DNA from: Psammoneis japonica
Lineage: Eukaryota
DNA: 64,000 nucleotides
Direction of reading: 5' to 3'
NCBI GenBank assembly: GCA_008632985.1
Contig: QPGO01000029.1
Location: 322,874 to 386,873 of the forward strand
Shown here: piece by piece, positions 5,930 through 59,529 of the stretch
How the letters are laid out: the number at the start of each line of letters is the position of its first letter
How positions within the stretch are numbered: the first letter of the stretch is position 1
Translations under genes and position numbers: made by a program
Notes under the pieces: generated by a model
The model's database searches: none
The model's input: the letters and a program-made list of their open reading frames with translations, nothing else
Told to the model about the DNA's origin: nothing

Positions 5930-6487
5930 TCATGATCTCTTGCATTGATTTCATCCAAACTCCAAAAGGTCCCATCCGACAGTGCCACTTGAATGTTTGG
6001 TGCCTTTGACCACATGCGAGTCGATTCGGCCTTGTTCAATCCCAGAGTTTGCTCCCACGTGTCGTGGTCTGGTGCAAACAGGATGCTCTTGCATGTGCCT
6101 TGAATGACAATGATGTGCATGTTGCCGATTCTCTCATGGTCATGATGCAGAGCACCAGAACACTCTGCAGACACATGTTGACCTGGAGCAAGTCTGGGCA
6201 CTTTTGTGTTGTCATCTTGGTTTGGGAATGGGGTGAGGTGAGAAAGGTTTCAACTGTTTGGCCCAGCGCCAAGCCAACACATCCAAAGCAGCCACATGCA
6301 CTTGTCGCAAGATGTGCACCATGACAATTCACAATGTCCTTTCAAAACTGACCCAATCCATGCACGAGCCCCAAATGCAAGTGGGTGGTGCAGAGAGACT
6401 GAACATTTTAAGGCAGCTGCTGGAGATCTGGGTTGGACTCCAATGCACGTGCTTCATGCCGTTGAGCCCAAGAGTGGCCTCTGGAGC

Positions 6488-6958
6488 CGCAAAATCACAA
6501 AGGGCGCAAAATGACCAAGGGCTTGAGATGGCCAAGGGTGCAAAATCACAAAGGGTGCAAAATGGCCAAGGGCGCAAAATCACAAAGGGCGCAAAAACAC
6601 AAAGGGCGCAAAATGGCGGCAAAGGGTGCAAAATCACAAATGGCGCAAAATGGCCAAGGGCACAAAATGACCAAGGGCGCAAGACAGCCAAGGGCTCAAA
6701 ATCACAAATGGCACAAAATGAAGGCAAAGTGTGCAAAATCACAAAGGGTGCAAAATTGCAAAGGGCGCAAAATGACCAAGGGCACAAGACAGCCAAGGGC
6801 TCAAAATCACAAAGGGCACAAAATGGCGGCAAAGGGTGCAAAATCACAAAGGGCACAAAGTGGCCAAGGGCACAAAAACACAAAGGGTGCAAAATGGTGG
6901 CAAAGGGTGCAAAATCACAAATGGCACAAAATGGCCAAGGGTGCAAAATCACAAATGA
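6488..6958 (+). repeat. Complex modular minisatellite, block 1
   Basis: 17-20 bp units AAGGGYRCAAAAT + CACA / GGCC / GACC / GGCGGCA. Confidence 0.95.
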
Positions 6959-7250
6959 GGCTGGCCACACGAAAAGGTGCTGATGGAGCTCGAAACAGCT
7001 CGAACGGTCAATTTTCAGGTGTGGACACCAACAGAAAGCTCTTGTCGCACATGTGTTGTTTGTCAATTCCCATTTCCTGATGAATGGAGGCTGATTGAAC
7101 ATTTCAACAGTCAAAATGGTTTGTTGCAAAACACATTTGCACATGAAACATGGTTGTTTGTCATGCGACTGCGCTCTGCGCGCTTTTTCTCAACAAATGT
7201 TTTGGGAGCTCGAGAGCACCCGTTGGCACCTTTTCATGTGGCCAGTCTTA

Positions 7251-9925
7251 AATGGCACAAAATGACCAAGGGCGCAAGACAGCCAAGGGCTCAAAATCAC
7301 AAATGGTGCAAAATGGCAGCAAAGTGTGCAAAATCACAAAGGGTGCAAAATGACAAAGGGCGCAAAATGGCCAAGGGCACAAAATCACAAAGGGCGCAAA
7401 TGGCCAAGGGGCAAAAATCACAAAGGGCTCAAAACCACAAAGGGTGCAAAATCACAAAGGGTGCAAAATTGCAAAGGGCGCAAAATCACAAAGGGCGCAA
7501 AATGACCAAGGGCACAAAATGACAAAGGGCACAAAATGGCCAAGGGCGCAAAATCACAAAGAGTGCAAAATGGCGGCAAAGGGTGCAAAATCACAAAGAG
7601 CACAAAATCACAAAGGGCGCAAAATGGCGGCAAAGGGTGCAAAGTCACAAAGGGCACAAAACAAACAAGGGCACAAGATGGCCAAGGGCGCAAAATCACA
7701 AAGGGCGCAAAATGGCAGCAGAGGGTGCACAAGACAGCCAAGGGCTCAAAATCACAAAGGGCGCAAAGTGGTGGCAAAGGGTGCAAAATCACAAAGGGCG
7801 CAAAATGGCCAAGGGCGCAAAATCACAAAAAGGGCGCAAAAACACAAAGGGCGCAAAATGGCGGCAAAGGGTGCAAAATCACAAAGGGCGCAAAATCACA
7901 AAGGGTGCAAAATGGTGGCAAAGGGCTCAAAATCACAAAGGGCGCAAAATGACCAAGGGCTTGAGATGGCCAAGGGCGCAAAATCACAAAGGGTGCAAAA
8001 TGGCGGCAAAGGGTGCAAAATCACAAAGGGCACAAAATGACCAAGAGCTTGAGGTGGCAAAGGGCGCAAAAACACAAAGGGTGCAGGGTGGTGGCAAAGG
8101 GTGCGAAATCACAAAGGGTGCAAAGTTGCAAAGGGCGCAAAATCACAAAGGGCACAAAATCGCCAAGGGCACAAAATGGCCAAGGGCACAAAATGGCCAA
8201 GGGTGCAAAATCACAAAGGGCACAAAATGACCAAGGGCACAAAATGGCCAAGGGTGCAAAATCACAAAGGGTGCAAAATGGTGACAAAGGGTGCAAAATC
8301 ACAAAGGGCGCAAAAAGACCAAGGGCACAAAATGACCAAGGGCACAAAATGGCCAAGGGCGCAAAATCACAAAGGGTGCAAAATGGCGGCAAAGGGCAGA
8401 AAATCACAAAGGGTGCAAAATGGCAGCAAAGGGCGCAAAATCACAAAGAGTGCAAAAACACCAAGGGCACAAAATGGCCAAGGGCGCAAAATGGCCAAGG
8501 GCACAAAATCACAAAGGGCAAAAAATGACCAAGGGCACAAAATGGCCAAGGGCACAAAATCACAAAGGGTGCAAAATGGTGGCAAAGGGTGCAAAATCAC
8601 AAAGGGTGCAAAGTGGCAGCAAAGGGTGCAAAATTGCAAAGGGCGCAAAATGGCCAAGGGCGCAAAATCAAAAAAAGGCGCAAAATCAAAAAGGGTGCAA
8701 AATCACCAAGGGCTTTGGATGGCCAAGGGAGCAAAATGACAAAGGGTGCAAAATGTCGGCAAAGGGTGCAAAATGACAAAGGGCACAAAATGGCCAAGAG
8801 CTTGAGGTGGCAAAGGGCGCAAAAACACAAAGGGTGCAGGGTGGTGGCAAAGGGTGCGAAATCACAAAGGGTGCAAAATCACAAAGGGCACAAAATGGCC
8901 AAGGGCGGAAAATCACAAAGGGTGCAAAATGACCAAGGGCACAAAATGGCCAAGGGCACAAAATCACAAAGGGCGCAAAATCACAAAGGGCGCAAAATGG
9001 CAGCAAAGGGTGCAAAATTTCAAAGGGCGCAAAATGGCCAAGGGCACAAAATCAAAAAAAGGCACAAAATGACCAAGGGCTTGAGACTGCCAAGGGCGCA
9101 AAGTCACAAAGGGTGCAAAATGGCGGCAAAGGGTGCAAAACCACAAAGGGCACAAAATCACAAAGGGTGCAAAATGACCAAGGGCTTGAGATGGCCAAGG
9201 GAGCAAAATCACAAAGGGTGCAAAATGTCGGCAAAGGGTGCAAAATTACAAAGGGTGCAAAATGGCGGCAAAGGGTGCAAAATCACAAAGGGCGCAAAAT
9301 CACAAAGGGTGCAAAATGACCAAGAGCTTGAGATGGCAAAGGGCGCAAAATCACAAAGGGTGCAAAATGGCGGCAAAGGGTGCAAAATCACAAATGGTGC
9401 AAAATCACAAAGGGCGCAAAATCACAAAGGGTGCAAAATGACCAAGGGCTGCACAAAATGGCCAAGGGTGCAAAATCACAAAGGGTGCAAAATGGCGGCA
9501 AAGGGTGCAAAATCACAAAGGGTGCAAAATGGCTGCAATGGGCGCAAAATCACAAAGGGAGCAAAATGGCGGCAAAGGGTGCAAAATGGCCAAGGGCGCA
9601 AATCACAAAGGGTGCAAAATGGCGGCAAAGGGTGCAAAATCACAAAGGGCGCAAAATCACAAAGAGTGCAAAATGGCGGCAAAGGGCGCAAAATCACAAA
9701 GGGCACAAAATGGCCAAGGGCACAAAATGACCAAGGGCTTGAGATGGCCAAGGGTGCAAAATCACAAAGGGTGCAAAATGGCAGCAAAGGGTGCAAAATC
9801 ACAAAGGGCGCAAAATGACCAAGGGCGCAAAATCACAAAGGGCTTGAGATGGCCAAGGGCACAAAATCACAAAGGGTGCAAAATGGCCAAGGGTGCAAAA
9901 TCACAAAGGGCGCAAAATGACCAAG
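7251..9925 (+). repeat. Complex modular minisatellite, block 2 (~2.7 kb)
   Basis: Same 17-20 bp units in shuffled order; the source of the many repetitive ORFs in the track. Confidence 0.95.
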
Positions 9926-10099
9926 GAGTTGCTGTTTCAGCAGGTGCATGACATTCACAGCTCCTGAAATTGACAGTCACAAGCTTTCCAGGGATCTCTT
10001 CCGGTGCCTCACTTGCATCCAAGCACGCGTTGACATCATTCCGCGACAAGCTCCGGTGCTGTGAAGTCAGCATTTGCAGGTCCATCTTGCATTGTCTTG

Positions 10100-12520
10100 G
10101 CAAGTTGCTGGGCTGGCCATGATCCCATCACAACAAATGTGCACCGATGTGTCACACTCAATTGCGCTGACTTGTCCATGACGTCTTGCACCCAACCAGT
10201 GCATTGTGATTTAATCTGTTGCGCAGCAGACTCGTGCCGGCTTCGTGTTGTGGATGGAAAAGAGTGCTTCCTTCCATTCCAACCAGCGGTGTAGGAGCTT
10301 GGGGTGGCTTGAGCTTCTTGGGAGAAGGTCGTCCTTCTCTGTGCTCATGCTGGTCCTCTGGGTCCCATTTCAAGGTCTCAATTGGTGAGTCACCTTGGAT
10401 CTTGTGGTGCTGAATCATCACCTTGTAGTCATCTGACATCCACTTGTCTCTTGGCTTTTGCTTGATTGCCTGTGCCCTCTCCCAAAGTGTGTTTTGGTCA
10501 TTTGTCCTGTTGTTGTCCTTAATTGCTTCCTGAGCATTGTTGTGTTTGACACAGAATGCTTCCTGCTCAAGGACATCCCCGTTCAAATGAACTCACCCAG
10601 CAGCGTAAAGTTTCCCACTTGTCAGTTTCTTTGTCCTGTCATGCATTGCAAGTGACCTCTCACCTGCCTTCCTCTTCTGCTGCCATTTGGCCTTGGCCCC
10701 TTCCGTGTTGGCACGAGCGAGAACAACCACCATCTCCTCTGCTGCTGAGCTGTCCAACACGTTCAAGTCTTGCAGCATCTCCCATTTTTCTCAGGAGCAA
10801 GGGCTGGAGACAAGGGTTGATGTTGGCTCTTGTTGTTGGGTCTTGTCCTTCGTTTTGAGGATTTCTGGGTGGCTGAGGCACTTGCAGTTGGGTGGATTCC
10901 AGCCGCATTTGGCAGTGGCATCTTTGCTCCCATCTTCATTGGCAAAGCTTCCATTCCAGCCTGCGTTTGTGGTGGGTGTGATGTCCAACTTGCGGCCATC
11001 AATGGGCAGGTTTGTGGCTCTCTTCAAAGCAACTTGATTGGCTGCATGCACCCAACAGCCAATCTTGAATTGGCCATTCTGCTGGCTGCTGTCCCCCAGT
11101 TGCCAAATGTGAGCACCACACGGAAGGCCAAGACACATGCACCACTTGGTGAGTTCATCATTGATGCACCTGAGAAGCTCCAGATCAAACCTTGTGCCAT
11201 GGCCATCGATCATTGCATGAGGAACGGGGCCTCCCTCAACTCGTGGAAGGATCTCCAACTCGTCAAGGTGTCGAAGAATGTCTGCGAGCATCTCTCCCAT
11301 TGTGCCTGCATGTGGAGACACGGTTGCACAGCAAGGCACACGCTTTTCTCAAAAGATGCACTCAGGTCCACCTGGCATGAGCTTTCCTTTCCCAGCATTT
11401 GCACGCAGCCAATCACTGGCCAAACCATTGTGATCAGAAACATCATCGCAGTCGGCAAACAAATCACATCCTTGACTGTGCAACAGAGGAAGATCTCTCT
11501 TTTCACCCTTCACAATGACAACGCAAAGAACTGGTTGCCCATTTGCTGCAGTGAAGCCCATGGTGGTCCATGGAATGTTGGTTGTGGCGGCGGTCTTGGT
11601 GGCCTTCGATCCCTTTTCCGTCATGACTTTCTCGGTGGAGCGATTGCTGCCAACACGCTGATTTGTGTCATTCCCCACCTCATCTGCCATGAGCAAGCAC
11701 TCAGGATGCTTCATCTTGCATTTCGCAGCATGCCCGTGTGCTTTTTTCTCTGTTGACACTTCATCACCCTGCTTGTCAAGGAATGCGGCCTCCTCAACTT
11801 TGTCCAAAATTCTTGCTTCTTCTTGAAGGCACTCGCAAATTGAGTCGTGCATGAATTTGATGTTGTCGTACATCGCCCACTCCTGCCGATCCACGGAGAA
11901 GCCTTTGGGGCATTTTGCATTGACTCTGTCCCCACGCCAATTCATGAAGCCTTTGCAGTGCTTGATGCCGAGTTCAGCATGTGGATTCTGTGGGTCGGAA
12001 GGCTCGAATCCACGGCGAACCTTTTTCCATTCAACGACTCGCTTCTCGACTGCAGTGCCTTCAATTGGAGAGTTTGCCATTTCCAAAAATTTTTTTGCTT
12101 TGCTGGAGCATTCAGTTGTGCCATTGAATGACAATGTCCAAGAAGCATGCTCTCGACGTCTTGCACCGGTGATGTGCGATGCCCAGTCGTGAGCCGTTGT
12201 GGTGCCTGCTGGGTTGCTTGCATGCAGCTCGATTTAAGATGGATCTCTCCGGCATTTGGGCTGACTCGTCAATCCCATGCTTTACTTTTGCTTCTCCAAT
12301 TGTCTCCTTCAATGTGCCTTTGGGCAATCTCTCTTCTTCGCCATCCTTGAGGAGCTCGCGACATCGAATGAGTTCCTCAGTGGCCCAAACCTTCGCCTCT
12401 TCCAAGTCACTGTCCCTTTGCGTCATTGCTTCTGCTGTGGCTCCTTTGGGTCTTCCTCCTTTGCTTTGGTTTTCAAGTGGTGGAGGGTTGTTGTCATTTT
12501 TGGGTCCTTCCTTTGCTCGG
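10100..12520 (-). pseudogene. Pogo/Tc1-mariner-like DDE transposase, frameshifted and hypermutated
   Basis: Fragments HPECLLMADEVG, WTTMGFTAANGQPVLCVVI, PGGPEC, AMIDGHGTR, LGLPCGAHIWQLGDSSQQNGQFK resemble the DDE_1 catalytic core; candidate terminus near 13195-13245 (two TAAGGACTCARTTC repeats, then TTTTTTACTGG-TA); partner TIR not found. Confidence 0.8.
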
Positions 12521-27335: not shown

Positions 27336-27539
27336 ACCACAAGGACGGGAACACTTTCACTTTGCATTGTATTGTCGGGCCTATATCAAATTCAATAAGA
27401 AACATATGAATACAGCATAATCAATTTAGTGAAACCTAAAATTAGCCTCTCGCTATGATTGGACAGCATTAGTTGATGCGCGAGCAAGTGGCGGAAAAAT
27501 TGGGCTAGCATCGCGGATGCTGCTCTGGTGTTTATGTTC

Positions 27540-29030
27540 AAACCTCTCGTCTTTCATCCAAGCGCATCATTGCCCAAAGAAATGATGGCACACACAGGTT
27601 GGACAGAAGCAAATGTGTCAAGAAGAGGGAGCTGGGTGAATGGCAAACATTGTTTGATGCAAGCTTTGTGGTGGAAGCATGCCAGTTAAAATGCACTGCA
27701 TGCAGCCATGGTCAATTTTGTTCCACCAACACTGCTCATTGACCAAACCAAGGATTTGGAGACTGAGCTCTCTTTCTCACTCACTGACATGGCACAGGTG
27801 CTGATTGCACCCATCTCGGGGGGGGGGGGGGCAGCAGAGTTGCATGAGTGAGGTGTTCAGTGATCTCCTCATTGTGACAAGCCAACCACCAATGTGTTCA
27901 CAGTGTTGAGCGAGGCTCAAGATGCTGAAGGGCTTGTTGAGGCAGCTGAGAAGCCACTGGTGACACCATGAGTTATGGGAGGCATGGTGCAGAGGAGCAC
28001 AAGGTGACAAAGATGAGTGGAGGATGCGGCTGCAAGCAAAAACTCACTCTTGAACTCATCAACATGTTGCAGCACAACATTGATGAAAGAAAGGAATGAG
28101 CTTGCTGCAGCTTGTGTGGCAATCACAGGCTTGCGTGCTGCTTCTGTGTCAGCCATCTGATGCAGAAGCAGATTGCGGAAGATGACACCCCCCATTTGCA
28201 CAGGGGGAGGCACAGACCACCATCTCTCATTGGTCTCCAATCTGTGCCAAACAACCAACGGGTCAGTTGCCCTCTGTTGCTCTTGACTCTCCTTTCCTCT
28301 GGTGACTGATGTGCTCTTGGACAAGTTCCACATCAAGAGCTGTCTTGCACTGTGTTGATGTGAAGTGGCTCCAGCAGCGTGCCCAACAATCAAGCAACAA
28401 CTGGGGCAAGACTGCGTGCAACTTTGATCCCCAACTGTGTGAGAACGTGTCACCCCAAATGAGTCAAATGTACAACAGCAGTCCACAATTGCAACACACA
28501 AATTATTCCAGGTGCTTTTTGTTGAGTGTCAAGTCAACCCATCATTGTGCATGATGTGAAACATGCAAAACAACCAACTGCAAGGATGAGAGATGAGACT
28601 GGAGATTGACTTTCCCAGCTGCTGCAAGGGTGCATCACCAAACAAGCCAAAAGCACAATGATGGTCAAGAATTGTTGTGTGCAAGTCATTTCAGGTGCTT
28701 TTGTTGGCTGTCAAGTTGATCTGCCGTGTGCAAACAATGTGAAGTGGTGCCAGCAGAGTTCGCAAATGACCAGAGCAAAGCACTGGCTCATGTCGCCCCC
28801 ACAGCACAATCCATGCTCCTGGCTCAGTCCACATCACTCACAAAGTTTCAACACAGTGAATGACAGAACGTCAACACCTTGCTTTTAGAACATGATGCAA
28901 AACAAATGGCTGTGAGAAAGACAAGGGCAGACAACACCCTCCAAAACATCAAAGCACGACGCTGCACCACAAGACGCACAACTGCAACTCGTCAACACAC
29001 TGACTGTTTTCACCACAACACCACATGTTG
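27540..29030. repeat. TpA/CpG-depleted repeat island 2 (unidentified decayed element)
   Basis: Almost no TA dinucleotides, Tyr-free fragmentary ORFs, internal diverged repeats (CAGGTGCTTTT..GTCAAGT at ~28510 and ~28692). Confidence 0.6.
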
Positions 29031-31407: not shown

Positions 31408-31756
31408 GCTCTGTAACATCTTTCAATCATGGGGATTAGCCCTTCGGTGTAAACATGGTGCATGTCCTTCTAGAAGCTGTCATCCGGCATTTCCTAGCCA
31501 CAGAAGATGGCTCGCAGCATCTGAGCGATAGTCCTACAATCGTACCACGTCGCATTCGACAACGTCGTAGCGCAATGTCAAGTGGATTGAACATTTTGAA
31601 CCATTGTCCAAAACCCATAGACCAAACTCGCAGAAGAATCAATTGAAAGGGCCAAGGAACCGCTCTGGATTGGACAAGGATGATTGTTTGCATTCCCAGC
31701 AGGTGGATTGCAATTTGAAAGCTCAACCACCCTTGTTTTCAGTGTGGCATTGTGTG

Positions 31757-34700
31757 CACACATGTTGAAGTGATGCAAACAGCAAAAGGAGTGCCCCCTG
31801 CGTTGCCTCATTTTGCAGCTGCAAAAGCCACTCCTGAAGCACCTTTGCTGAGCTTTGTCTGACTCCTTAGGGTGTGGGGTGACAAACTGTCTCCAGATCA
31901 AGAACAGCTGCTCTTGAGCTTGTCCAGCATGCAGCAGCAGTTGTGCAAAATGGCAGCAAATGGAGAGAAGCAGTTGGTTGCATTTTGTGCATGCTGTTTT
32001 GTTCTCCACTTTTTTTCTGATGCTTGAGCCATTTGCAAGGACAAAACAATGCAAAGCAAACATCAACTTGCTGCAAAGCACAAAAGAGCAGCAGTGACTC
32101 CTGAGCTCCTGGCAAAGCTCTGGCTGACAGTGTGGCCAGTGCCTTTCTTGTGCTGCAGCCACTGCAGAAACCAAGTGACCCCGAGAGTTCACTGAGCTTG
32201 CATCTCTCCATTTGCAGGGAGCTGTGGAAAAACACAGAGAAAGCAAAGCTGGCTGAACATGGACATGATGTGCCTTGGCACCCTGCAAGTGAAATGTGCA
32301 GAGGTCACTCTGTGCTGTGACCATCCATCTGTTGAACGGTCTTGACAAGTTGTCCATGAATGCTTTCTAAAAATTGTGGGAAAAGCTGCGATTGACTGCA
32401 GCCACAGTGTTCAGGTTTCTGTCATAGAATTTCTTCAAGGTGTCAACAATCCCGGTCATTTGAATCTCCCAAATCTTGCTTCTAATGATGTGATTATGAT
32501 GCAGAAGTTTGCTTCACTCTTCCCTTCCACGATTCATGTGAATGCTTTGAATCGCAATCCACCCAATCATGCCGAAGTCAACATGGCAAAATGCACCAAA
32601 CATTGATCCTTTCAAACACATGAGGCACTCTTTGCATGGCGACATTCCCATTCACATGAATCTGTGTGATGGGAAAAGGACCAAAAGATCTTTCTTCCGA
32701 CTTGGTGGGATCATCTGTTTTGACCAAAACCTGTTGCCCGACACAACAGTCAAAAAAACAATTTTTTGAGATTTTGCCGATGCAAGTTGTCATCAATCAA
32801 CACTTGTTGACAATCCCAAATGGCAACCAGATCTGCAATGAGAGGCAAATCAAGAAACATGTCTCTCTGGCAGATGAGAGCTCCTGGTGAAATTCCCAAG
32901 ACTCTTGAGGCAGCACATCATAGACTGTGCATGGTTGTGGCCAATGCGTTGTCAACAATTTGCTGAGCTTCCATCACATTGTAAGGAGGATGTCCTCTGA
33001 CTGCAGAGTTTGAATGATGTTGCCAGCTGTCTGATGCATTCTTTTGCAAATGGCATTGGCTTGAGGATTTCTGGTGGTGGTTTCTGCATCCTTGATTCCA
33101 GCCCTTGCCAACAGAATCTGAAATGGTTCACCAACAAATTCACTGCCTTTGTCATGGATGCAACGGTTTGGTTTTGGACATCTTGCCAACCAACAATTAG
33201 CAAACTTCATCTGCACATGATCTGAAGTCTTGTTGTCAGTGCGAACCAATTCAACAAGGTTAGAAACACTGTCAATTGCAGTTGGCACATTGAACTCAAC
33301 TTTTTGTTCTTGCATTTGTGTTTTCCAAGGACCAATTGAATCAATGGCAACTTCATCCCAAGGAACCAAAGGGACTTCTCTTGGTGGCAAGCAACTGCAT
33401 CCCACTCCCCAGAGCTTGTTCCTTTGGCATGTGTTGCAATGACAATTCTTGACCAATCGGCACAATGATGGATGGTGACAATGCATGCAAATCGTGCAGC
33501 AGAGCTTCTGCATGCCACAGTGCCATAAAACTTGATGATGCCACCTGACAATGGGTGCCAACAAAGCTGTTGGCAAAGCAATTGCCAATCATTGTCTTGT
33601 GCGTTGACATCAGGTCTCCAACAAATCAATGGAACTCCACCGATGTGTCAAGTTGGAAAATGAAGCAGACTCCTTTGTCGCTCTTGACTCAGCTCACAAT
33701 CTTCAAACTGAAACAACCTTTGCATGTCAGGACAATTCATGGGGTGCTGCATCTCTTCTAGACTTGGACAATTCAAAAAGCAATCCACCAATTCTTGATC
33801 TTGAATGGTGCAGAGTGGGGTGCTCAATTCTGGACCCAAATTTTCTTCAAGCGATTTGTCTTCTGGAGCCATGGCAGTTGGGGAGGAACAGAAAAATCAA
33901 CAATGGTGCCTTTCGACTCCACATCAGAACTCTTCCCTTCCACGGTTGCTCTCCACATGAAGAAATTGTGAAAAGAAATCAGCTGGAAATCAGCTGGAAT
34001 GTTCTCCTTGCCCTTGATGCATGCAAACTTGGGTGCAAATTCTTCGAGAAAAAGGCGCCAACGAAGCACTCGTTGTGTGTTTAGCATCTTGAAAGTCAAA
34101 TTCTTATGATCCACAAACACTGCCATGTCAGCTTCCAAAGATCTGCAGCAAGCATTTCTTTTTCCATGGTGGAGCAGTTCTTCTGGGCTGCATTGAGTTT
34201 TCGGGACCAACACGAGATCAGCTTGCCATTCTGTGTGACAACAGCACCGAGCTGATGATCACTTGCATCTGTGTGAATCTGCCAAGGAAGGTTATGATCA
34301 GGGTGAGCAAGCGACACATCACCCACCACAATGGCCTTGATCTCCTCAAAGGCTTTCTGACAAGCTGGGGTTCATTCAAAATGTTGCTTTCTGGTCAAAT
34401 CCATTGGCGGCACCAAAGCATGAGATCGCTGAGGCCACATGTCACGACAGCAAGTGACGGCTCCAACAAAAGATCTGAGTTGTGTGTGGTTCTTGGGAGG
34501 AGCAAGTTTGAGCACTGCCTCTGCTTTCTTCTTCCAAGGCTTGACACCTTCCAGAGTCATCCAATGTCCCAAAAAATTGGTTTCTTGAACGGCCCATTTG
34601 CACTTGAGCAGATTCACTTTCAAGCCGTTTTGCTCTGGTCATTGCAATGTGGCACTCAACACAGCCAGATGCTCCAACCATGCCACCGAGAGGAGACCAA

Positions 34701-37700
34701 CATCATCAATGAAACAATCTGCATCAATCTCATTCATCACTTCTTCAATGATGGCTTGAGCAACATCTGTCACCGGCTTCAAACCCATTGTGAGTCGACA
34801 ATGTCGAAACTTGCCACAAGGAGCAACAACAGCACACAACTCCTTGGACTCTTCATCAAGCTCCAAAGCACAACAGAACATGGACAAATCCAACTTGGGG
34901 GAAATGCTTGCATCCTTTTCTCTTCTTGACAATGTCTTGAATTCTTGGCAAAGGACACATTGGCCCTTTTAGTGCCTTGTTGAGCATGCAAAAATTGGAC
35001 ACCCATCGCACTCGCTGATCCTTTTTGGGAATGATGAACAAAGGAGATGCCCAACAGGTGGGGCCACAAGGCCTTGATGCTTCCATCTGAACAAGATGCT
35101 GAAGCTCTCTCTTGAAAATCTCTTCATGAACCTTCGGGACTGAGTGCTGTCGAGCATGAACCGGAATTGCACTGGGATCAATTTCCAAGTGGACCAATTC
35201 ATGTGGATGCCAACCCAATTTTCCATCAAACACCTTCAGGAACCTGGCCAGTGCTTGCTGCAATTCCAGTTGCTGCTCTCTTGACAGACATGTTTGCCTC
35301 TTAGCTGCTTCTTCTAGAGATGCTGCTGACTCACATTTGGCACCCAGAATTTGCGTGGTGAGTGAATGAAACTTGATCTCGTTGATTTCTTCTTCTTCAA
35401 CTTCTGGACCTGCAAGAGCAAAGTGAGCATTTTCTGCATTGTCCCAAAAGGTAAGTTCCTTCATGGGTGTGGACTTGCCCAACCACTTGACTGTCCTTGA
35501 TGAAAAGTTCACATCAATTCCCATCTTGGTCAAAAAATCCGATCCAAGAATCACATCGTAACGGCACGGCATTTGAAATGTGAGAGCCCTTTGAAAATCA
35601 ATGCTTCTTGATCTGTTGAATTCAGGTGGCACAATCATCTCCAAACCAACTGCTCCATTGCTCTTCATTGGTCCTGCAGCTGTGTTGCATGCTGCTGTCT
35701 TCTTGAGCAGGCTTGGAGCAGCTCCACATGCCAAACATTGCTCGTGAACAAGAGCAGTTGCACTGCCTGAATCAAACAACATTCTTGATGAACGAGAACA
35801 GAGTGAGCTCCATTCACTTGTTTGCATGCAAGGACTGATGCAGGTGCCATGTCAGCATTCATGCTTTTTACATTGGGCACCGGCATGCCACCACAATTCA
35901 ATCCCATTGGCTCTTCTTGATTTTTCTCATTCTCCATGTTGCTTTCATGTGACAAACATGTGTCATGTGAAGGTTCATGTTCAATTGGTGCATTTGTGTC
36001 AATGGCAATGACATTGTCAACTTCAAAGCTGACACCAGGACTGGAGCAGCACTCCAAGCTGGATCACAATCCAGGTCCTCTTAGACATGGACCTCATCTG
36101 ACATCCACTCCTCCTGACGTCTTGTCAGGACCTCCTGGCAGACCACAGCCTGCCATGTCAAAGTGGCGCACATCTGCACCCCACTCTTGTGACTGCGCAT
36201 CAGTCAGAGAAGCTTGTCAAGCTGGGTGAGCATTTGGTTCTTCTGAACTGCTCTGCACCTGACATTGGTTTGCACAAAAATTCTGAGGCAAATTCTGCTG
36301 ACCGCATCCTCGGCCCACACTGTTCTGGTTGTAACCACGGCCATGTCCGCCTTGGCCACATCCAAAACTGTTGTTGGGGGTGTGTCCACCATCGCCACAT
36401 CCATGTCTCCAGCACAGTTGGCATTCTGAGGGCCACAAAATCAACCTCCATGGTTTCCTCGGCCTGGACATTGGTTGCAACCTCGCCCACAACCTGCATC
36501 TCAGCCTGCACTTGGCAAACCTTGGCCACCCCTCTGAAAATGAGGATTTGGATTGCAACTGGGACTCTTGAGATTCTCCCTGCAATTTCACCACAAAAGA
36601 GGTGCTGCAGAGTCCTTGTGCAATCAACAACAGGAGTCGGGACCAAACTTCTTCTTGTTCCCGGCAGAATCCACATCTCCAGCTCTGCACTTCTTGGGCT
36701 CCTCTTCAGACTTGCCAGAACTTTTCTGATCAGCAAATCCTTTCTCATTGGACACATGCTGAGTGACATCTTCTAAGGAATCAGTGCTGACATCCTTTCC
36801 AGCATGCACACAACTCTGCTTCCACATCATCGGCATTCCCATGAATGTGTTGTTCTTGATTTGTTGCTCATTGAGCAAAGGCTCAGTTCCTGGCAGCTTG
36901 TTGGCACAATGTGACATTTGAATCATCCTGTCAGCATGCTCATGAGGAGAATCACCAAAGGGTTTAGAGAAGTTTTTTTCAAAAATTCAAACATCGTGTC
37001 ACGTGCTTGATGATCGCAGTGTCACTGATGGAAGCACGCAATTTCCGCATCAAACCTGGCCATCATCCGATCTGCTCCTGTGGTGCCTGAAACCAAATTG
37101 CTCCATGCGTCTTGAGTGTTGTCATCCAGTGCTTCTTCACAATGGGTGAATTTTTCAGGCCCTTCATCACAATCCAAATGCTCGGCACAGTTTTCAAATC
37201 ACTCTGCAGTGCAGAGCAAGCACTCAATGCCACACTTGCCGGTGAACTGAGGGCACATCTTCTGTTTCTTAGCACCATCGTCACAGTTCTGCACAAGTTT
37301 CACTTTGTCCAAATCTCCGTGCTTGGTGAAGGTTGATTTGTGCACAAAGCACGGTGCTCTCAATGAGGCTCTCACCAAATGCGACATTGCGTTTGAGGCA
37401 AAGAATGCACAGCAAAGAAAAAAAAGGAAAGAACAAGACACAGTGTGATCACAGTGAATGGTCTTGACAAGCTGTCTACAAACACTTTCTAAAAATCATG
37501 GGAAAAGCTGCGATTGACTGTGCAGCCACAGTGCTCGGGTTTCTGTCACAGAATTTCTTCGAGGTGTCAACAATCCCGGTCATTCGAATCTCCCAAATCT
37601 TTCAGCTGATGACACAATCATGATGCAGAAGTTTGCTTCATCTGTCTCCGCTCCACAGCCACCCATGCTGCAGCACAGCAGCCTGTGCACCCAAACACTC

Positions 37701-38368
37701 CACCCTGTGGAAAACATGCACAGCTTGCAAGCTTGGGCTCTGTTGTGCAACAAAAAGAGGGCAAAGCTGCTTGCCCCAGCTTCTGCTTTGTGCCAGGCCA
37801 CATGCACCCCACCCCTGCCAGACCTTGTGGGAGCTCTCTGGCTGGCCAGCTGACAGCCCAGGTGAGCTGTGTGCCAATGGCGGCAAAGGCTCTGGCAAAG
37901 AAGGAGCTTCTTGTGACAGCATTGTGAGCAGAGGGGTGTGCAAAAAATGGCGACTCTGGTCTTCTCATGGCCAAAAGCTGGGCACTGCTGCATGACAGTC
38001 AAGTTGCTGTTTTTTGGCCATTGGCGGCTTTGCGCTTTGGCCTCTGTTTTGTCTCATTCAAGCAAAATCAGATGGCGGCCATCCAAGTGTTTGCTCCTCC
38101 TGTTTGTCTGGCTGCCAGATTGGCTTTTGTAAAAGCTCTCTCTTTTGCACCATCATCTTGTGAGCCATGGAGATTTTTCAGAGCTTTTGGTGGCTTCCAA
38201 TCTAGTTTCCAAGGGGTGTGCTGAGGCAGATGAGATCTGGGCATTTGAGATCGCTTTTGACTTTTCAACATGCAGTCAAGGGAATTGTGGAGCGCCGTCT
38301 CTCATTCGCCCAATGACGCTCGCTGTGCACAAGAACAGGCACAGCACACACGACTCACTGATTTTGCC
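31757..38368. repeat. ~1.3 kb dispersed repeat, copy A, split by the Gypsy insertion (31757-32332 + 37641-38368)
   Basis: Both halves align colinearly with the uninterrupted copy at 42464-43685. Confidence 0.8.
32333..37640 (-). mobile_element. Full-length, inactivated Ty3/Gypsy LTR retrotransposon
   Basis: LTRs 32333-32516 and 37455-37640 (TGAA...TTCA); 5-bp TSD TCTGT on both sides; polypurine tract GGAAGGGAAGAG next to the 3' LTR; order gag-like, protease (LFDSGS), RT (WASPLFIIPKKD, FIDDV), RNase H ([11 protein letters not shown]), integrase (VAIDSIGPW, IHDKGSEF, NPQANAIC, GPF). Confidence 0.95.
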
Positions 38369-38510
38369 TTTGAAACCAAACACCAAAAACCAACAATCAA
38401 AAACAGCCGCAGCCTCATCAACACATACTCGAATACTCTCGTGGAGACACGCTAGGAATACTCCTCCCGGAGGACCTTATGACCTCATTTATTTTCGTTG
38501 AAACAAGACC

Positions 38511-42463: not shown

Positions 42464-43685
42464 CACACATGGCGAAGTGACGTAAACAGCCAAAGGAGTG
42501 CACCCTGCATTGCCTCATTTTGCAGTTGCTAAAGCCACTCCTGAAGCACCTTTGCTGAGCTTTGTCTGGCTCCATGGGGTGACAAACTGTCTCCAGTTCA
42601 AGAACAGCTGCTCTTGAGCTTGTCCAGCATGCAGTCATTGTGCAAAATGGCAGCAACAAATGGAGAGAAGCAGTTGGCTGCATTTGTGTGCGCTGTTTTG
42701 TTCTCCACTTTTTTCCCCTCAAGTTGAGCCAATGCAAAGCAAACGCCCACTTGCTGCAAAGCACAAAAAAGAGCAGAGGTGGCTCCTGAGCTCTTGCCAA
42801 AGCTCTGGCAGACAAAGCAGCATGCACCCATGCCAGAGGCGGCAATGAAGTGCCTTTCTTGTGTTGCAGCTGTTGCAAAAACAAAGTGACTTCAAGCCTG
42901 CGCTGAGCTTGCATCTCTCCAATTGCAGGGAGTTTTGGAAAAATGCAGAGAAAACAGAGCTGGCCAAAGATGAGTGTGAGCACTCGTGCCCTGCAAGCAC
43001 AGTGTGCAGAGGTTGCTCTGTGCTGCAACCATCTCCACATCCACCCATGCTGCAGCACAGCAGCCTGTGCACCCAAGCACTTCACCTCTGGGGAAAATGT
43101 GCGCAGTTTGCAAGCTTTGGCTGCGGCACGCAACAAAAAGCTTGCGAAGCTGCTCGCCACAGCTTCTGCTGCTTTGCCAGGCCACATGCACCCCACCCCC
43201 ACTCAGACCTTGTGGGAGCTCTCTGGCTGGCTGGCTGGCAGCCCAGGTGAGCTGTGTGTGCCAGCAGCAGCAGCAAAAAAGCTCTGATGAAGAAGGAGCT
43301 CATTCTTGTGACAGCTTTGCTGTGAGCAGAGGGGCACACAAAAAAAAAAGCTCTGGTCTCATCATGGCAAAAAGCTGGGTGCTGCTGCATGACAAACAAG
43401 TTGCTGTTTTTGGCCATTGGTGGCTTTGTGCTTTGGCCTCTGTTTTGTCTCTCATTTGAGCAAGTTGGACGACATCCAAATGTTTGCTCCTCCTCCTGTT
43501 TGTCTGGCTGCCTGCTTGGCTCCTGTGCACAAAAACTCTCTTTTGCACCATCATCTTGTGAGCCACGGAGATCTTTGAGAGACTTTGGGAGTCTCTGCTT
43601 CCCCTCTAGTTAGCCAGGGTGTGCTGGCTGAGCGAGCGAGATCGCAAGAACAGGCACAGCACACAAGACTAACACTGATTTCGCC
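42464..43685. repeat. ~1.2 kb dispersed repeat, copy B (uninterrupted), TpA-depleted island 4
   Basis: Shares e.g. AAAGCCACTCCTGAAGCACCTTTGCTGAGCTTTGTCTG and CAAGAACAGGCACAGCACAC with copy A, same orientation. Confidence 0.85.
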
Positions 43686-43838
43686 CAGTCCAAGAGCAGA
43701 GAGCGCTACCCCGCAAAATTCGCATTTCGCATCAGCATTCAGCATCCCTTTTGATGTCTTTTGTGTGTGCAATACCCAGTGCTTTCGGTATTGTTGCCTA
43801 CCTTTTCTATCAGCAACGCGAAAGGAAGAATTGATTCG

Positions 43839-45175
43839 ATGGACCAATCTGTTATCGCAACGGGCGACGATGCAGTGCTAGCCAAGCGAGCTGCAGTTGC
43901 TGCAGGCTATTACGAGGACCCTTTCCTTGAGCCATTGATCACGAACTGTCGCGGACTGGCAGCTGCCCCTGATTTTTCATCTGGTGCTCCCGCATCCCCA
44001 GCTCCAGAACAGCCTCCGTTTAATCCAACCCATGGGACTCGACTTGACCCACCTGCTGGAAACCAAACTAGTCGCAAAGATTTCTCGTCTGGCGGACCAA
44101 CGATAGCATCGTGTCCAAGGCTTCCCGTCGCTGATGCGAGAAAGATGAGGCATCAACAACCAATTATCAAAAGAGGTACACATGCTCGTGTTTGCTGTAT
44201 CGATCGAGCAGTCTCCGCTTTTATCTCCTTGCAGCATGAGCAGAAGAAGAGACAAGTAGTGGTGTTGGGAGCTGGAAAAGATACTTCTTACTTTCGCCAC
44301 CGGGCCGGTTTATCTGTATCAGGCAGAGCAACTTTAACAGAAGATTCGACACAGTGGTTCGAAGTAGATTACAATTCAGTGATTCACTCCAAAGCAGAAA
44401 CAATTCAGACATCGCCAGTACTTTCGTCTCAGGCGACTGTAAAGTCTGTTGGGGCCAATTCTTACCTATTGTCTCATCCTGACTCGCTATCTCGATGTTA
44501 CTTGCTTGGGCACGATTTGCGCTTGGAACCAAAGATATTGATGGACCAACTGCTGCTCTGCTCATTTGATCCAGAAGCTGTCACCTTATTTGTACTCGAA
44601 TGCGTTCAAATGTACTTGCCAGGTACGTAGCGTACCATACTTTGATTGTCCCCTAATGGACATTCTGTGAATACGGGAGACCAACCCAACTATTGCGTTT
44701 GTCCATTTCTTTTTTCATAGAGGATTCAAGTCGTGTCCTTCTCCAGTTTCTATCACAAAGCTGTCCCAAAGGATGTGTTGTGCTGTATGACCCAATACTG
44801 GGGTCCGACCCTTTTGGAAAAGTAATGGAACAGAATCTCCTACGAGCTGGCGTTGTTTCTGACGAATCGTGCCTCCTTCAAACGCGAACACTTTGTGATC
44901 AGCTGCAAAAGATGGCGGCTTGCGGTTTTGACCATGCAGTGGGATGCGACATGTGGAGTGCTTACGAAACAGTAGTGACACCGGAGCAACGCCGTCGTGC
45001 CAATCAATGCGAGTTTCTAGACGAAATAGAGGAATGGATGTTGATAATGAGGCATTACTGTCTGCTTCTCTGCTGCAAGTCAGACAACACTTTCGGACTT
45101 GCACTGGCAAAAGTCGGGTCTTCATCGCCTGTTGGTTTTGTTGACGGTCGGTGCCATCTGGCTACCAAGCGGTGA
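43839..45175 (+). CDS. LCMT1: Leucine carboxyl methyltransferase (LCMT1/PPM1)
   Basis: AKRAAVAAGYYEDPF, PIIKRGTHAR, QVVVLGAGKDT, ECVQMYL, DPFGKVM, EFLDEIEEW..IMRHY; intron 44623-44720. Confidence 0.92.
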
Positions 45176-47099: not shown

Positions 47100-48500
47100 T
47101 GTCACGCTCCAAGATTTGGCCGGCCACGCCAGCCCGCCCGGCGCCGTCCGGCAAGCACGGCACGCACGTGCACCTTCTCCTCGCTCAAGGTGGCTCAGGA
47201 GCTCTATGATGCAACCATTCACTCTGTCATGTCCTGCTGTTTGGCACAGCCGGTTGGCCTCCCAAAGCAGAACTCTTACCATCATGGTGCCACACTGGCT
47301 GGCAGCAGAGGAGAGTTGCCACTGTCTTTGAGCTGCAGGTTCCTCTTGAGTGACAAGGAGGAAGGAACTGAGAAAACTGGCTCTCTGGCTGCTGGCTGTT
47401 GATTGTGAGCATGAGATTGGGAAAGTGAGGGGATGTGAGAAGGGGTCTCTTGGTTGACACTGTCTCTCTGGAGAGTGTGCCTCTGGCTCCAGAGCAGACA
47501 ACTGCCAGAGGGTCTGAGCAGAGAGGTCAACGTGCAACCTTCCGCATGCCATGGTCCGTGGCTGACATGAAAGACTCTCATGGTGGCATTTTTCAACCCG
47601 CGCTGCAACACCCTGTTGTCAAGTGATGGGGGTTGTCTCCTGTTGCATTTCTTCTCAAATCAACCTGTCAATCCAACCACTCTCTTTGTTTGCCATGAGG
47701 GTAGAAACAACAACGGCGGCAGAACACAGCACATGTGCAGCGCTGCTTGCCTTGGAACTTTCAACACTTCTTCTTGATGATGGCACTGCCAGGGGCATTT
47801 GTGGCATTGATTTTGTTGATGGCTTCTTGAAATGATTCACCATGTCAACTTGGCAGTTGCTTCTTTTGTTTGGCTTTCACGAGGGTGATGGAGATGCACA
47901 AACTTTTGCTGCTGCAAAACAACTTGGCTGGACATCTGTGTGTGTTGCCATCCATGCTGCTGCATCTTCATCCATCACCATCCTTCATCACATGGACCCA
48001 AGACAAGGGGATGATCATTTGAAAATTGCCCATGGCCCAGCAATGGCTTTTGCTCTTCTTTGGGCAGAGTGGCAAATGTGCGGGTTGAGCCCTCCACAAA
48101 AACAAGTTTCTCAGCGTTGTGCCAGGCAGGTTTGAGAAGAGCCACATTGTCCACAGAATGATGCTCAAGTCTTTCTCAAGGCAACATTGACATGAGACAG
48201 ATTTCTTTGCCACCAAGACACTGGCCAAAGCACAAAAAGGACAAATGTTGTCATTTGTGTTGGCCATGCTGTTGGAGTCTCATCATGGCAGGCAGATGAT
48301 GGACACCCCAAGATCGCCGTCATGTGGGGTTCTTCTTGGCAGGTGGTCAGCAAGAACATGGGGCAAGTTTTGGCAACCCAAGGTGGTGACTTCCAATGTT
48401 AAAATGTTTTGTGTGTTCAGCTGCTCTGCTTCACACAATCAATCTTGTGACTGGAGTTGGGAAGTCGTGCTGTGATTTGTGAGAGAAAATACACATTTCA
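47100..48500. repeat. TpA/CpG-depleted repeat island 5 (decayed element)
   Basis: Very few TA dinucleotides, almost Tyr-free overlapping ORFs on both strands. Confidence 0.6.
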
Positions 48501-59166: not shown

Positions 59167-59529
59167 NNNNNNNNNNNNNNNNNNNNNNNNNNNNNNNNNN
59201 NNNNNNNNNNNNNNNNNNNNNNNNNNNNNNNNNNNNNNNNNNNNNNNNNNNNNNNNNNNNNNNNNNNNNNNNNNNNNNNNNNNNNNNNNNNNNNNNNNNN
59301 NNNNNNNNNNNNNNNNNNNNNNNNNNNNNNNNNNNNNNNNNNNNNNNNNNNNNNNNNNNNNNNNNNNNNNNNNNNNNNNNNNNNNNNNNNNNNNNNNNNN
59401 NNNNNNNNNNNNNNNNNNNNNNNNNNNNNNNNNNNNNNNNNNNNNNNNNNNNNNNNNNNNNNNNNNNNNNNNNNNNNNNNNNNNNNNNNNNNNNNNNNNN
59501 NNNNNNNNNNNNNNNNNNNNNNNNNNNNN
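59167..59529. other. Assembly gap (N run)
   Basis: Run of n characters. Confidence 1.

Follow-up and report, generated by a model that had tools for sequence, protein, structure and literature searches.

The LTRs of a degraded gypsy element in Psammoneis japonica differ mostly at YR dinucleotides

Background

Why should the two LTRs of a dead retrotransposon differ almost only at TA and CG dinucleotides rewritten to TG or CA? The question is raised by a locus in the genome of Psammoneis japonica (NCBI GenBank assembly GCA_008632985.1, contig QPGO01000029.1), within a window of 64,000 nucleotides (the whole stretch of DNA analysed, positions 322,874 to 386,873 of the forward strand; coordinates below are those of the window), and the answer that we favour would be a rare kind of targeted DNA mutation.

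The element and its setting

The stretch 32328..37645 is a degraded Ty3/gypsy-order LTR retrotransposon on the minus strand; these coordinates, taken from the initial annotation, include a 5-bp TSD at each end. Its parts, and the repeat in which it sits, are as follows:

31757..32325, unstranded: left half of an older host repeat, the insertion target; 77.6% identical to 42464-43033
32328..32332, unstranded: left copy of the TSD, TCTGT; the same 5 bases abut the outer ends of both LTRs
32333..32516, minus strand: LTR A, 184 bp with TG...CA termini, the 3' LTR in element orientation; direct repeat with 37455-37640
32517..32528, minus strand: polypurine tract of 12 minus-strand purines adjoining the 3' LTR; read from the sequence, its orientation agreeing with the gene order
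32974..33588, minus strand: integrase remnant (Pfam rve, E = 4.2e-4, 21 bits, under the curated cut-off of 32.6)
34096..34371, minus strand: RNase H domain of reverse transcriptase (Pfam RT_RNaseH_2, E = 2.3e-21)
34372..35851, minus strand: protease and reverse-transcriptase region, split across several frames; homology to 16 proteins
37455..37640, minus strand: LTR B, 186 bp, the 5' LTR in element orientation; direct repeat with 32333-32516
37641..37645, unstranded: right copy of the TSD, the identical 5-bp motif beyond LTR B
37651..38223, unstranded: right half of the older host repeat; 80.7% identical to 43033-43626
42464..43626, unstranded: host-repeat paralog without the element; includes the TA-free block 42530-43607

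The minus-strand gene order (RT, RNase H, integrase) is that of Ty3/gypsy elements, and the best of the 16 homologs of the protease and RT region is 52% identical to it, several of these homologs carrying PF00078. The RT fragments of the element gave no direct Pfam match, and no tRNA-complementary primer-binding site was recognised by eye beside the LTR. The outer ends of the LTRs are independently backed by contigs of other family copies, which diverge exactly before 32333 (3 contigs) or directly behind 37640 (6 contigs). The family comprises 942 contig pieces with at least 80% likeness to the element, and by depth about 35 LTR copies. The element's flanks, read as continuous over the insertion point, are collinear with the paralog at 42464-43626, in which the alignment opens a gap of 13 bp, and the element and its host repeat together sit between a sulfatase gene and a Kelch-repeat gene (Pfam).

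Differences between the two LTRs

Global alignment of LTR A with LTR B gives 184 aligned columns at 87.5% identity, with 23 substituted positions (20 transitions and 3 transversions) and one 2-bp indel, a TG present only in LTR B (37519-37520). The alignment contains both example strings quoted in the initial annotation and reproduces its counts exactly: four sites with TA against CA or TG (three CA/TA, one TA/TG), four with CG against TG or CA, five reciprocal sites with TG against CA, and five other substituted positions besides the indel. These last five comprise two transitions, both GTT in LTR A against GCT in LTR B, and the three transversions, which are clustered at 32478-32481. At the reciprocal sites LTR A always reads TG and LTR B always CA, an orientation (5/5) that is not significant (two-sided p = 0.06).

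Differing columns amount to 20 of the 86 that fall in a YR dinucleotide of either LTR, against 3 of 98 elsewhere (Fisher p = 3e-5), a divergence of 0.233 versus 0.031; counted as events, 13 of 15 transitions are YR-to-YR, whereas such positions make up a share of 0.46 (binomial p = 0.0014). By Jukes-Cantor the distance comes to 0.137 for the full alignment and to 0.031 for non-YR columns, and the earlier expectation that LTR dating would be inflated is borne out, at about 4.4-fold: the process makes LTR repeats look several times older than their actual age. There are 4 TA in the 184 bp of LTR A, a density about fourfold that of the element's internal region, and the LTRs share 2 CpGs, with a further 4 one-sided. 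Both LTRs have the same CA or TG at 25 places, for which the O/E is by our own arithmetic about 1.2, like the 1.15-1.17 found outside the depleted blocks described below and unlike the 1.7 of a pre-depleted element.

If the two LTRs were not sisters, owing to gene conversion from another copy or to recombination between two insertions, their differences would represent family polymorphism, and the family indeed has many diverged copies (the 942 pieces), with one contig fusing a B-like to an A-like LTR (joint 37476 to 32352). We nevertheless consider this very improbable: the TSD has survived unchanged at either end (chance 1 in 1024), the flanking sequence runs collinear with the paralog, and at several sites one LTR differs from every copy compared (37602, 19 contigs; 32480-32484), which fits mutation in place. 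Moreover, conversion would leave unchanged which dinucleotides differ.

Depleted blocks in the window

The element lies within a larger tract of altered composition:

31618..38426, unstranded: depleted block made up of host repeat and element, with sharp edges; one of seven in the 64-kb window

This block contains 28 TA over its 6.8 kb, whereas either flank has about 12 in every 250 bp. Its O/E is 0.02-0.05 for TA, 0.11-0.30 for CG and 1.66-1.98 for CA and TG; for the element the O/E is 0.07 for TA and 0.30 for CG, and its CA plus TG number 1,130. The seven blocks, which contain the gypsy element, a repeat pair and a satellite, total about 21 kb, with a TA O/E between 0.00 and 0.13 per block. 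Taken together, TA stands at 0.04 inside against 0.56 outside and CG at 0.36 against 0.95, whereas CA rises to 1.72 from 1.17 and TG to 1.71 from 1.15. For the other twelve dinucleotides the inside-versus-outside shift is at most 0.13 in ten, with AA at +0.25, GC at +0.26 and GA at -0.37, the last shrinking to -0.17 without the satellite; shifts of at least 0.5 are restricted to TA and CG, which fall, and to CA and TG, which rise. The mass balance closes (TA -724 and CG -721 against CA +761 and TG +708), and base composition is level (GC 0.484 inside, 0.477 outside).

Inside the blocks TA is thus lost more than CG, and in the young block at 1762-2449 TA is already down to 0.13 while CG is still at 0.84. 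The proposal that TpA is about as mutable as CpG therefore stands, and TpA is at least so, inside targeted blocks only (TA 0.04, CG 0.36); what does not stand is its derivation from four TA sites in the LTRs, as discussed below.

ORFs bearing host-type Pfam domains are almost entirely confined to TA-normal DNA, and those tested inside blocks have only element domains or no Pfam family, with the exception of 43761-44630 (LCM), which falls in the low-TA zone at 42-44 kb. The block at 42530-43607 is contained in the repeat copy 42464-43626, and that around the element extends about 140 and 200 bp past detected homology, while blocks 27533-28886 and 47277-48400 have no repeat partner inside the 64-kb window. 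The non-transposon host repeat flanking the element bears the same TA/CG signature, and the host repeat pair gives no strand clustering of sites (14 runs among 18 sites).

Direction of change

When the RT region is compared with distant homologs (tblastn, 577 codons), 1 of 11 conserved Tyr columns is kept, 4 having become TGY (Cys) and 4 CAY (His), whereas other conserved residues are retained at 156 of 226 columns. The reverse changes are absent from conserved columns of the same region (His to Tyr 0/6, Cys to Tyr 0/3), and in a 331-aa frame of the element Tyr makes up 0.3% of residues, against 2.0-4.7% in 12 of 13 homologs. In the coding region the change runs from TA to CA/TG, as read from fixed differences rather than from mutations observed occurring.

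A second line of evidence comes from a control within the window:

1558-2065 and 2083-2588, unstranded: tandem duplicate at the edge of another block

Over 1559-1762, copy 1 retains 13 TA, and copy 2 reads CA (11) or TG (2) in their place; 13 sites have TA in the first copy and CA/TG in the second, and 1 site shows the reverse. Over 1770-2027, copy 1 is without TA and the copies differ at 13 sites as TG-vs-CA or CA-vs-TG, all 13 reciprocal sites of the duplicate lying within the stretch where copy 1 has lost every TA. With 26 CpGs shared and 10 one-sided, independent CpG decay predicts about 0.5 visible reciprocal sites. Reciprocal TG-vs-CA sites can arise where both copies have lost a TA.

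Other copies of the element family offer a further means of polarisation, for which we used contigs from one sample; 40 of 1541 variable places were listed, and these favour positions that are uniform across the family, which hypermutable sites are not. In the LTRs, CA or TG is read at 32425 (3/3 contigs), 32484 (4/4) and 37477 (3/3) where this element has TA, one contig in each case probably being the sister LTR. On this thin support the three TAs look derived by CA/TG to TA change, probably through ordinary C>T, and consequently do not document TA loss, which removes them as a basis for TpA mutability and is, for these three sites, an outcome that the initial annotation itself named as refuting its reading; the fourth TA site (32495) is outside the 40 listed places. 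Internally, 33199, 35870 and 36774 likewise read CA or TG in other copies and TA here, so that among the listed 40 of 1541 places there are 6 such cases and none of the opposite kind, in which the family would have TA and this element CA/TG. For CpG decay the direction can be read directly, in the LTRs at 32413 (CG in 6/6 other-copy contigs) and 32437 (3/3), and internally at 34791, 35523, 35739, 36123 and 36590, where all other contigs read CG and this copy TG or CA; these seven sites are covered by 3 to 14 contigs each, four rows including this locus's own contig.

The six sites with apparently derived TA are what a RIP-like process, converting C to T at CpA to give TpA, with CA/TG as the hypermutable state, would leave behind. 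Such a reading is scarcely credible here, as RIP enriches TA, whereas TA is at 0.07 in the element and 0.04 in the blocks, with CA and TG raised, and Tyr codons have been lost rather than gained. Furthermore, private non-CpG C>T changes among the listed places number 6 at CA/TG and 7 in other contexts, out of an estimated 1,150-1,200 C/G positions per class, giving no CpA preference.

Timing is constrained by the LTRs themselves. Changes made before integration, on RNA (ADAR-like A-to-I editing with 5' U preference) or through error in reverse transcription, would be shared rather than different, since the same stretches of template give rise to both LTRs. The ADAR 5' neighbour preference does match TA, as noted in a recent preprint (bioRxiv 10.64898/2026.01.13.699255), yet the two strands are affected about equally and the same signature is borne by the non-transposon host repeat and the tandem duplicate, making this the least tenable of the explanations considered. 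The LTRs of a single insertion with intact TCTGT differ, so the changes are post-insertional; together with the like state of the flanking host repeat, this agrees with the earlier view that they are not RT or RNA-editing errors, and places them on DNA.

Proposed explanation

We propose, with a probability of roughly 0.7, that after a gypsy insertion TpA to TpG/CpA change on DNA, together with CpG decay, hit the two LTRs independently. A Ty3/gypsy-order element would have landed in an older repeat lying between two host genes, duplicating 5 bp of the target, and the block 31618-38426 would afterwards have been struck on DNA by two context-specific transition processes: a near-saturating change of TpA to TpG/CpA (A:T to G:C only at TA), removing about 90% of expected TA, and a decay of CpG to TpG/CpA, removing about 70% of CpG. 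Where the LTRs lost the same ancestral dinucleotide on opposite strands, one would now carry TG and its counterpart CA (5 sites), and loss of CG in one LTR only would leave CG against TG or CA (4 sites). Slow ordinary mutation would later have supplied new TAs through C>T change at CA/TG, which probably accounts for three of the four TA sites, as well as the clustered triple change in LTR A and the 2-bp insertion in LTR B.

A model in which internal-region loss (TA 0.90, CG 0.69) is applied independently to two LTRs, whose starting dinucleotide make-up is that of window DNA outside the blocks, predicts 5.4 reciprocal sites (3.5 from TA, 1.9 from CG; 5 seen), 3.3 one-sided CG sites (4 seen) and 1.6 one-sided TA sites (4 seen). 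The ancestry of the five reciprocal LTR sites, none of which is among the 40 listed places, would by this model and the tandem duplicate be TA or CG, in proportions of about two thirds and one third. We infer that the TA-loss signal of the LTR pair is carried by these five sites and not by the four TA sites.

An alternative history would have the element TA-poor on arrival, the source copies of its family having been depleted earlier, with only methyl-CpG decay and ordinary mutation after insertion and all five TG-vs-CA sites former CpGs. CpG decay is real (2 LTR and 5 internal sites polarised to family CG; element CG O/E 0.30), three of the TAs in the LTRs seem to be derived, and the 40 listed of 1541 places include none where the family has TA. 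This history is nonetheless distinctly unlikely: 2 shared and 4 one-sided CpGs predict about 1.5 doubly lost and 0.75 visible reciprocal sites, whereas 5 are seen; His or Cys has replaced conserved Tyr at 8 of 11 columns, some of them RT core positions, and a transposing source could hardly carry such changes; CA plus TG identical in both LTRs stand at about 1.2 rather than the 1.7 expected; and the tandem duplicate makes reciprocal sites with its CpGs intact.

Within the favoured account of TpA loss on DNA, the chemistry is a more tentative matter. The TA loss might be due to enzymatic deamination of adenine after T in silenced repeat DNA, the resulting hypoxanthine being read as G, while deamination of 5-methylcytosine would run alongside at CpG; we put the adenine-deaminase step, by analogy with what has been proposed for Bigelowiella natans, at somewhat less than even odds. 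Thymine modification in TpA contexts occurs in some protists, and the thymine of TpA could instead be modified (e.g. oxidised to a base of the 5-hydroxymethyl- or 5-formyl-uracil type, which mispairs with G). As TA is its own reverse complement, T>C before A equals A>G after T on the other strand, and sequence cannot separate the two. The equal gains of CA and TG (+761, +708) and of Tyr to His and Tyr to Cys (4 and 4) suit the thymine route, which we consider unlikely, though worth keeping in view: the only published proposal for the signature, that of the preprint, is an ADAT2-like adenosine deaminase, itself based on homology.

Comparison with known systems

RIP, in Neurospora and other ascomycetes, changes C to T mainly at CpA and raises TpA and AT content. 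The process described here resembles it in its sharp-edged tracts of dense context-specific transitions, limited to mobile or repeated sequence while adjacent genes are spared, and in its crippled transposon frames and inflated apparent LTR age, but its chemistry and direction are opposite, as here TpA is erased and GC stays level (0.484 inside, 0.477 outside). Methyl-CpG decay acts on silenced transposons, and cytosine methylation of diatom transposons has been the subject of published work. It is matched here by CG to TG/CA change in the same blocks, with family CG at 2 LTR and 5 internal sites; however, it can account for no more than about half of the dinucleotide loss (-721 CG versus -724 TA), and cannot explain the loss of Tyr codons or the reciprocal sites in the CpG-intact duplicate.

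The closest precedent is the TpA-restricted hypermutation of integrated giant-virus and virophage DNA in B. natans (Mettrop et al., 2026 preprint, bioRxiv 10.64898/2026.01.13.699255). As the preprint describes it, A:T to G:C transitions are there, as here, confined to TpA, which becomes TpG or CpA depending on the strand hit; loss of TpA goes with enrichment of CpA plus TpG, and the effect is limited to tracts of mobile or foreign DNA, the remaining genome being normal. RT- and transposon-type domains are enriched among TpA-depleted genes, and here likewise the blocks include element DNA. An ADAT2-like adenosine deaminase was proposed on homology alone (bioRxiv 10.64898/2026.01.13.699255). By the same account, the B. 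natans changes were seen as de novo mutations in mutation-accumulation lines, about 1000-fold over background and active in some lineages only, whereas ours are read from fixed differences; and the viral insert is single-copy and mildly depleted (rho TpA 0.45), whereas here depletion is near saturation (TA O/E 0.04), block edges are close to repeat copies and CpG is lost in the same blocks. B. natans is a rhizarian, whereas the genome studied here is that of a stramenopile (diatom-like).

Structure and setting of the element

The element is a degraded retrotransposon occupying 32333-37640 on the minus strand, and its recognisable parts are as follows.

32333-32516: LTR A, 184 bp, with TG start and CA end, direct-repeat partner of LTR B
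32974-33588, minus strand: weak integrase core (rve, E = 4.2e-4, under the Pfam cut-off)
34096-34371, minus strand: RNase H domain (RT_RNaseH_2, E = 2.3e-21)
34372-35851, minus strand: protease and reverse-transcriptase (RT) region (16 homologs, best 52% identity, several with PF00078)
37455-37640: LTR B, 186 bp, with TG start and CA end, direct-repeat partner of LTR A

The minus-strand succession of RT region, RNase H and integrase is the Ty3/gypsy gene order, which places LTR B at the 5' end and LTR A at the 3' end of the element; a tract of 12 purines (minus strand) adjoins LTR A, and the five bases TCTGT border the outer side of both LTRs. The LTR ends are confirmed by contigs of other family copies from a public sequencing run, whose alignment breaks off exactly at these boundaries, before 32333 and behind 37640. 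The reading frames are interrupted at many points, and Pfam scans of the RT and presumed gag fragments assigned no family. Two conserved LTR words, searched with up to 3 mismatches through the whole window, matched only the two LTRs, and conserved LTR patterns gave 0 matches among metagenome contigs.

The element lies within a host repeat that is older than the insertion: its two halves, 31757-32325 and 37651-38223, are 78-81% identical to 42464-43033 and 43033-43626, respectively, and the pair is collinear over the insertion point save for a 13-bp gap in the paralog. The paralogous 'empty site' (43020-43033 against 32320-32332 and 37641-37655) has these 13 bases fewer, and so offers no clean pre-insertion site. 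A sulfatase gene (ORF end 31407) and a Kelch-repeat gene (ORF start 38656) flank the region. Elsewhere in the window, the best named relatives of an aldo/keto reductase gene belong to raphid pennate diatoms (49-53% identity), and an assembly gap of 363 N lies at 59167-59529; one of the RT homologs carries a Ditylum label.

Loss of TA and CG in discrete blocks

Seven sharp-edged blocks depleted in TA and CG make up about 21 of the 64 kb, with GC content equal inside and outside them.

Table. Observed/expected (O/E) dinucleotide ratios in the window
TA: inside blocks 0.04; outside 0.56
CG: inside blocks 0.36; outside 0.95
CA: inside blocks 1.72; outside 1.17
TG: inside blocks 1.71; outside 1.15

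The remaining twelve dinucleotides shift much less: AA by 0.25, GC by 0.26, GA by 0.37 (falling to 0.17 without the satellite described below), and the other ten by no more than 0.13. Measured against the ratios outside, losses and gains balance, with 724 TA and 721 CG missing from the blocks and 761 CA and 708 TG in excess. The block containing the host repeat and the element (31618-38426) holds 28 TA in 6.8 kb, compared with about 12 per 250 bp on either side, and the paralogous host repeat forms a separate block (42530-43607). ORFs bearing host-type Pfam domains are situated almost entirely in normal DNA. In a small block at 1762-2449, TA has already fallen to 0.13 yet CG still stands at 0.84 (O/E), indicating that TA is lost faster than CG where the process is active.

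Two further blocks, 27533-28886 and 47277-48400, have TA O/E of 0.01-0.05 and CG O/E of 0.18-0.19; neither has a repeat partner in the window or an internal ORF of at least 200 residues. Another TA-free block includes a satellite (6400-10200) with a 17-bp period and higher-order spacings of 54 and 71, present as 62 and 85 copies in two repeat families. This satellite is strongly skewed towards purines (AT skew up to 0.60), and its units vary chiefly by CG, TG or CA at one same position.

Direction of the change at TA

Tyrosine codons (TAY) provide a direction. At 11 columns where Tyr is conserved in distant homologs, the element retains a single Tyr codon, with TGY (Cys) present at 4 columns and CAY (His) at another 4; for the remaining conserved residues taken together, retention is 156 of 226 columns. 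Changes in the opposite direction are absent (His to Tyr at 0 of 6 columns, Cys to Tyr at 0 of 3), and Tyr makes up 0.3% of the 331-residue frame. This loss of Tyr codons without reverse changes gives the direction as TA to CA/TG. The changes probably date from after insertion, since altered conserved RT positions are hard to square with a transposing copy. Pure CpG decay is incompatible with the dinucleotide profile together with the Tyr-codon test.

The same Tyr-to-His/Cys pattern is present in 3 of 13 homologs from other assemblies, and TA erasure is for this reason probably not restricted to the Psammoneis japonica genome. Of these three gypsy RT homologs, from environmental or other assemblies, P0014 keeps 1 of 12 Tyr columns and reads His/Cys at 8, with 0.2% Tyr overall; P0001 and P0005 read His/Cys at 5 and 4 of 12 columns, respectively. 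Protein relatives of near-equal length reach 52% identity at best (16 matches) and shorter ones 44-61% (4 matches), and a protein search for near-identical family copies found nothing close enough for site-by-site polarisation.

Differences between the LTRs

Across the 184 columns of the LTR alignment, 20 transitions and 3 transversions make up 23 substituted positions, and there is a single 2-bp indel, reproducing both the counts and the two quoted strings of the initial annotation.

Table. Differences between LTR A and LTR B by class
TA versus CA/TG: 4 sites
CG versus TG/CA: 4 sites
TG versus CA: 5 sites (in LTR A at 32357-8, 32361-2, 32375-6, 32489-90 and 32491-2)
Remaining transitions: 2, both GTT (A) versus GCT (B)
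Transversions: 3, clustered

Differing columns are concentrated in pyrimidine-purine (YR) steps of either LTR (20 of 86, against 3 of 98 others; Fisher p = 3e-5), and the Jukes-Cantor distance drops from 0.137 for all columns to 0.031 when only non-YR columns are counted. The expectation of the initial annotation that LTR dating would be inflated is thus borne out, by a factor of 4.4. Ages based on LTR divergence cannot serve as clocks in this genome, and after saturation at TA and CG, LTR distance no longer follows time; as a rough estimate, two independently saturated copies would be about 88-90% alike at any age. GCT versus GTT is the commonest non-YR transition; it accounts for both such changes between the LTRs (32350/37472 and 32410/37534) and for 5 of 35 between the host repeat copies (31757-38223 against 42464-43626).

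The reciprocal sites, at which one copy reads TG and the other CA, can be interpreted with the help of a tandem duplicate about 508 bp long (1558-2065 and 2083-2588) that spans the edge of another block. Over 1559-1762 the first copy retains 13 TA, where the second reads CA (11) or TG (2); over 1770-2027 the first copy is without TA, and 13 reciprocal sites appear (9 TG/CA, 4 CA/TG). CpGs are common to both copies in 26 cases and one-sided in 10, and independent CpG decay would be expected to produce only about half a visible reciprocal site. This control implies that reciprocal sites are places where both copies lost the same TA on opposite strands. The first copy also carries a 270-bp TA-free sub-patch (1763-2031) with intact CpGs in otherwise TA-normal sequence, suggesting that TA erasure can be confined to patches a few hundred bases long and comes before CpG loss.

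We then modelled the LTR pair by applying the losses of the internal region (0.90 of expected TA and 0.69 of expected CG) independently to two LTRs.

Table. LTR model, with starting composition assumed equal to the dinucleotide make-up of window DNA outside the blocks
Reciprocal TG versus CA: predicted 5.4 (3.5 from TA, 1.9 from CG); seen 5
One-sided CG: predicted 3.3; seen 4
One-sided TA: predicted 1.6; seen 4

Under this assumed starting composition, the fit of the model supports essentially the whole erasure having followed insertion. A further candidate, processive single-strand events, was set aside: the reciprocal LTR sites are uniform in orientation (A reads TG at 5 of 5), but with p = 0.06 this falls short of significance, the host repeat is opposite in strand coherence, its 18 sites forming 14 runs, p is 0.085 for the tandem duplicate, and CA/TG skew along the element shows no long runs in 250-bp windows.

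Polarisation by other family copies

Other copies of the family were sought in public sequencing runs. Logan contigs of run X1, which probably represents the sample behind the window assembly and so is not independent, contain 74% of the element's sampled words; in X2 and X3 no contigs aligned to the element. At 80% likeness, 942 contig pieces from X1 aligned, most of them 80-95% alike, and depth suggests about 6-36 family copies. Among the variable places the four kinds of transition occur with similar frequency (326 A>G, 349 C>T, 296 G>A and 304 T>C), and every kind of transversion accounts for 25-40. We polarised the best 40 of 1541 variable places, ranked by support, at which every other aligned contig opposes this copy; at 23 of the 40 the remaining depth is explained by this locus's own contig.

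Twenty-two of these best 40 of 1541 places fall in context classes bearing on TA and CG. Seven are CpG decays in this copy, including LTR sites 32413 and 32437, and six are new TAs where the family has CA/TG, three internal (33199, 35870 and 36774, backed by 10-15 contigs) and three in the LTRs (32425, 32484 and 37477, with 3-4 contigs each, one probably the sister LTR). The inference of the initial annotation that TpA is about as mutable as CpG draws no support from these three of its four TA sites, which read CA/TG in other copies and look like TAs gained through ordinary transitions (C>T or G>A). No place with TA in the family and CA/TG in this copy, and none of the reciprocal LTR sites, occurs among the best 40 of 1541, a list biased to family-uniform places, which hypermutable sites are not.

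Changes private to LTR B are 37602 (T), 37472 (C) and a TG insertion at 37519-20, and the transversions at 32480-81 are private to LTR A. At 37472 the family has T, and C was therefore gained by LTR B. LTR A differs from all aligned family contigs at 32480, 32481 and 32484, three changes in five bases that are a clustered multi-base event, which also created one TA. Private non-CpG C>T changes among the best 40 of 1541 number 6 at CA/TG and 7 elsewhere, with target positions estimated as about equal, giving no sign of a CpA-specific RIP-like process. A private TG to CA double change occurs at 34552-34553, against 5 contigs of other copies; given that TA and CG are short-lived, a single CA/TG transition can lead, via a transient TA or CG, to the reverse complement of the original dinucleotide.

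Mechanism, implications and comparison with known systems

Our analyses demonstrate two context-limited transition processes, TA to TG/CA and CG to TG/CA, which are restricted to repeat blocks and act on DNA, after insertion, affecting the strands about equally. Loss of CG would reflect deamination of 5-methylcytosine in silenced repeats, and loss of TA may reflect enzymatic deamination of T-preceded adenine, by analogy with the proposal for Bigelowiella natans. Like CpG, TA is a palindromic site, and a process altering the T would therefore leave a trace identical to one altering the A; we retain alteration of T as a rival to adenine deamination. With a probability of roughly one half, diatoms possess an active mutator that serves genome defence, is targeted through recognition of repeated or silenced DNA, and rewrites essentially every TpA to TpG/CpA soon after a transposon lands, an adenine (or thymine) 'reverse RIP' held in common with at least one rhizarian alga. 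In the boldest form of this reading, TpA in silent chromatin would bear a heritable base modification, the decay of which is the signature.

Several consequences follow for the study of such genomes. Homology-based transposon annotation worsens as TA-containing Tyr, Ile, Leu and Val codons are rewritten, and the dinucleotide profile offers a cheap detector of silenced DNA. In old pairs, TA versus CA/TG may represent new TAs, and TG versus CA the saturated trace of the mutator; the LTR pair described here records the process truly, though at a late stage and with some ambiguity. If the process is targeted in diatoms, they would be only the second lineage observed to have A:T to G:C, TpA-specific hypermutation of mobile DNA, hinting at a wider, unrecognised eukaryotic genome-defence chemistry beyond cytosine deamination.

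The finding belongs to a very recently described kind of process. A literature search for a diatom description of TpA erasure found none, the sole precedent found being a 2026 preprint. In that preprint, de novo mutations in integrated viral DNA of B. natans are almost all TpA to TpG/CpA, at a TpA mutation rate about 1000 times background, and an ADAT2-like candidate is named on homology alone (Mettrop et al., bioRxiv 10.64898/2026.01.13.699255). The change from TA to TG/CA is alike in the two systems, although in B. natans it was recorded as de novo mutation, whereas here we infer it from sequence differences.
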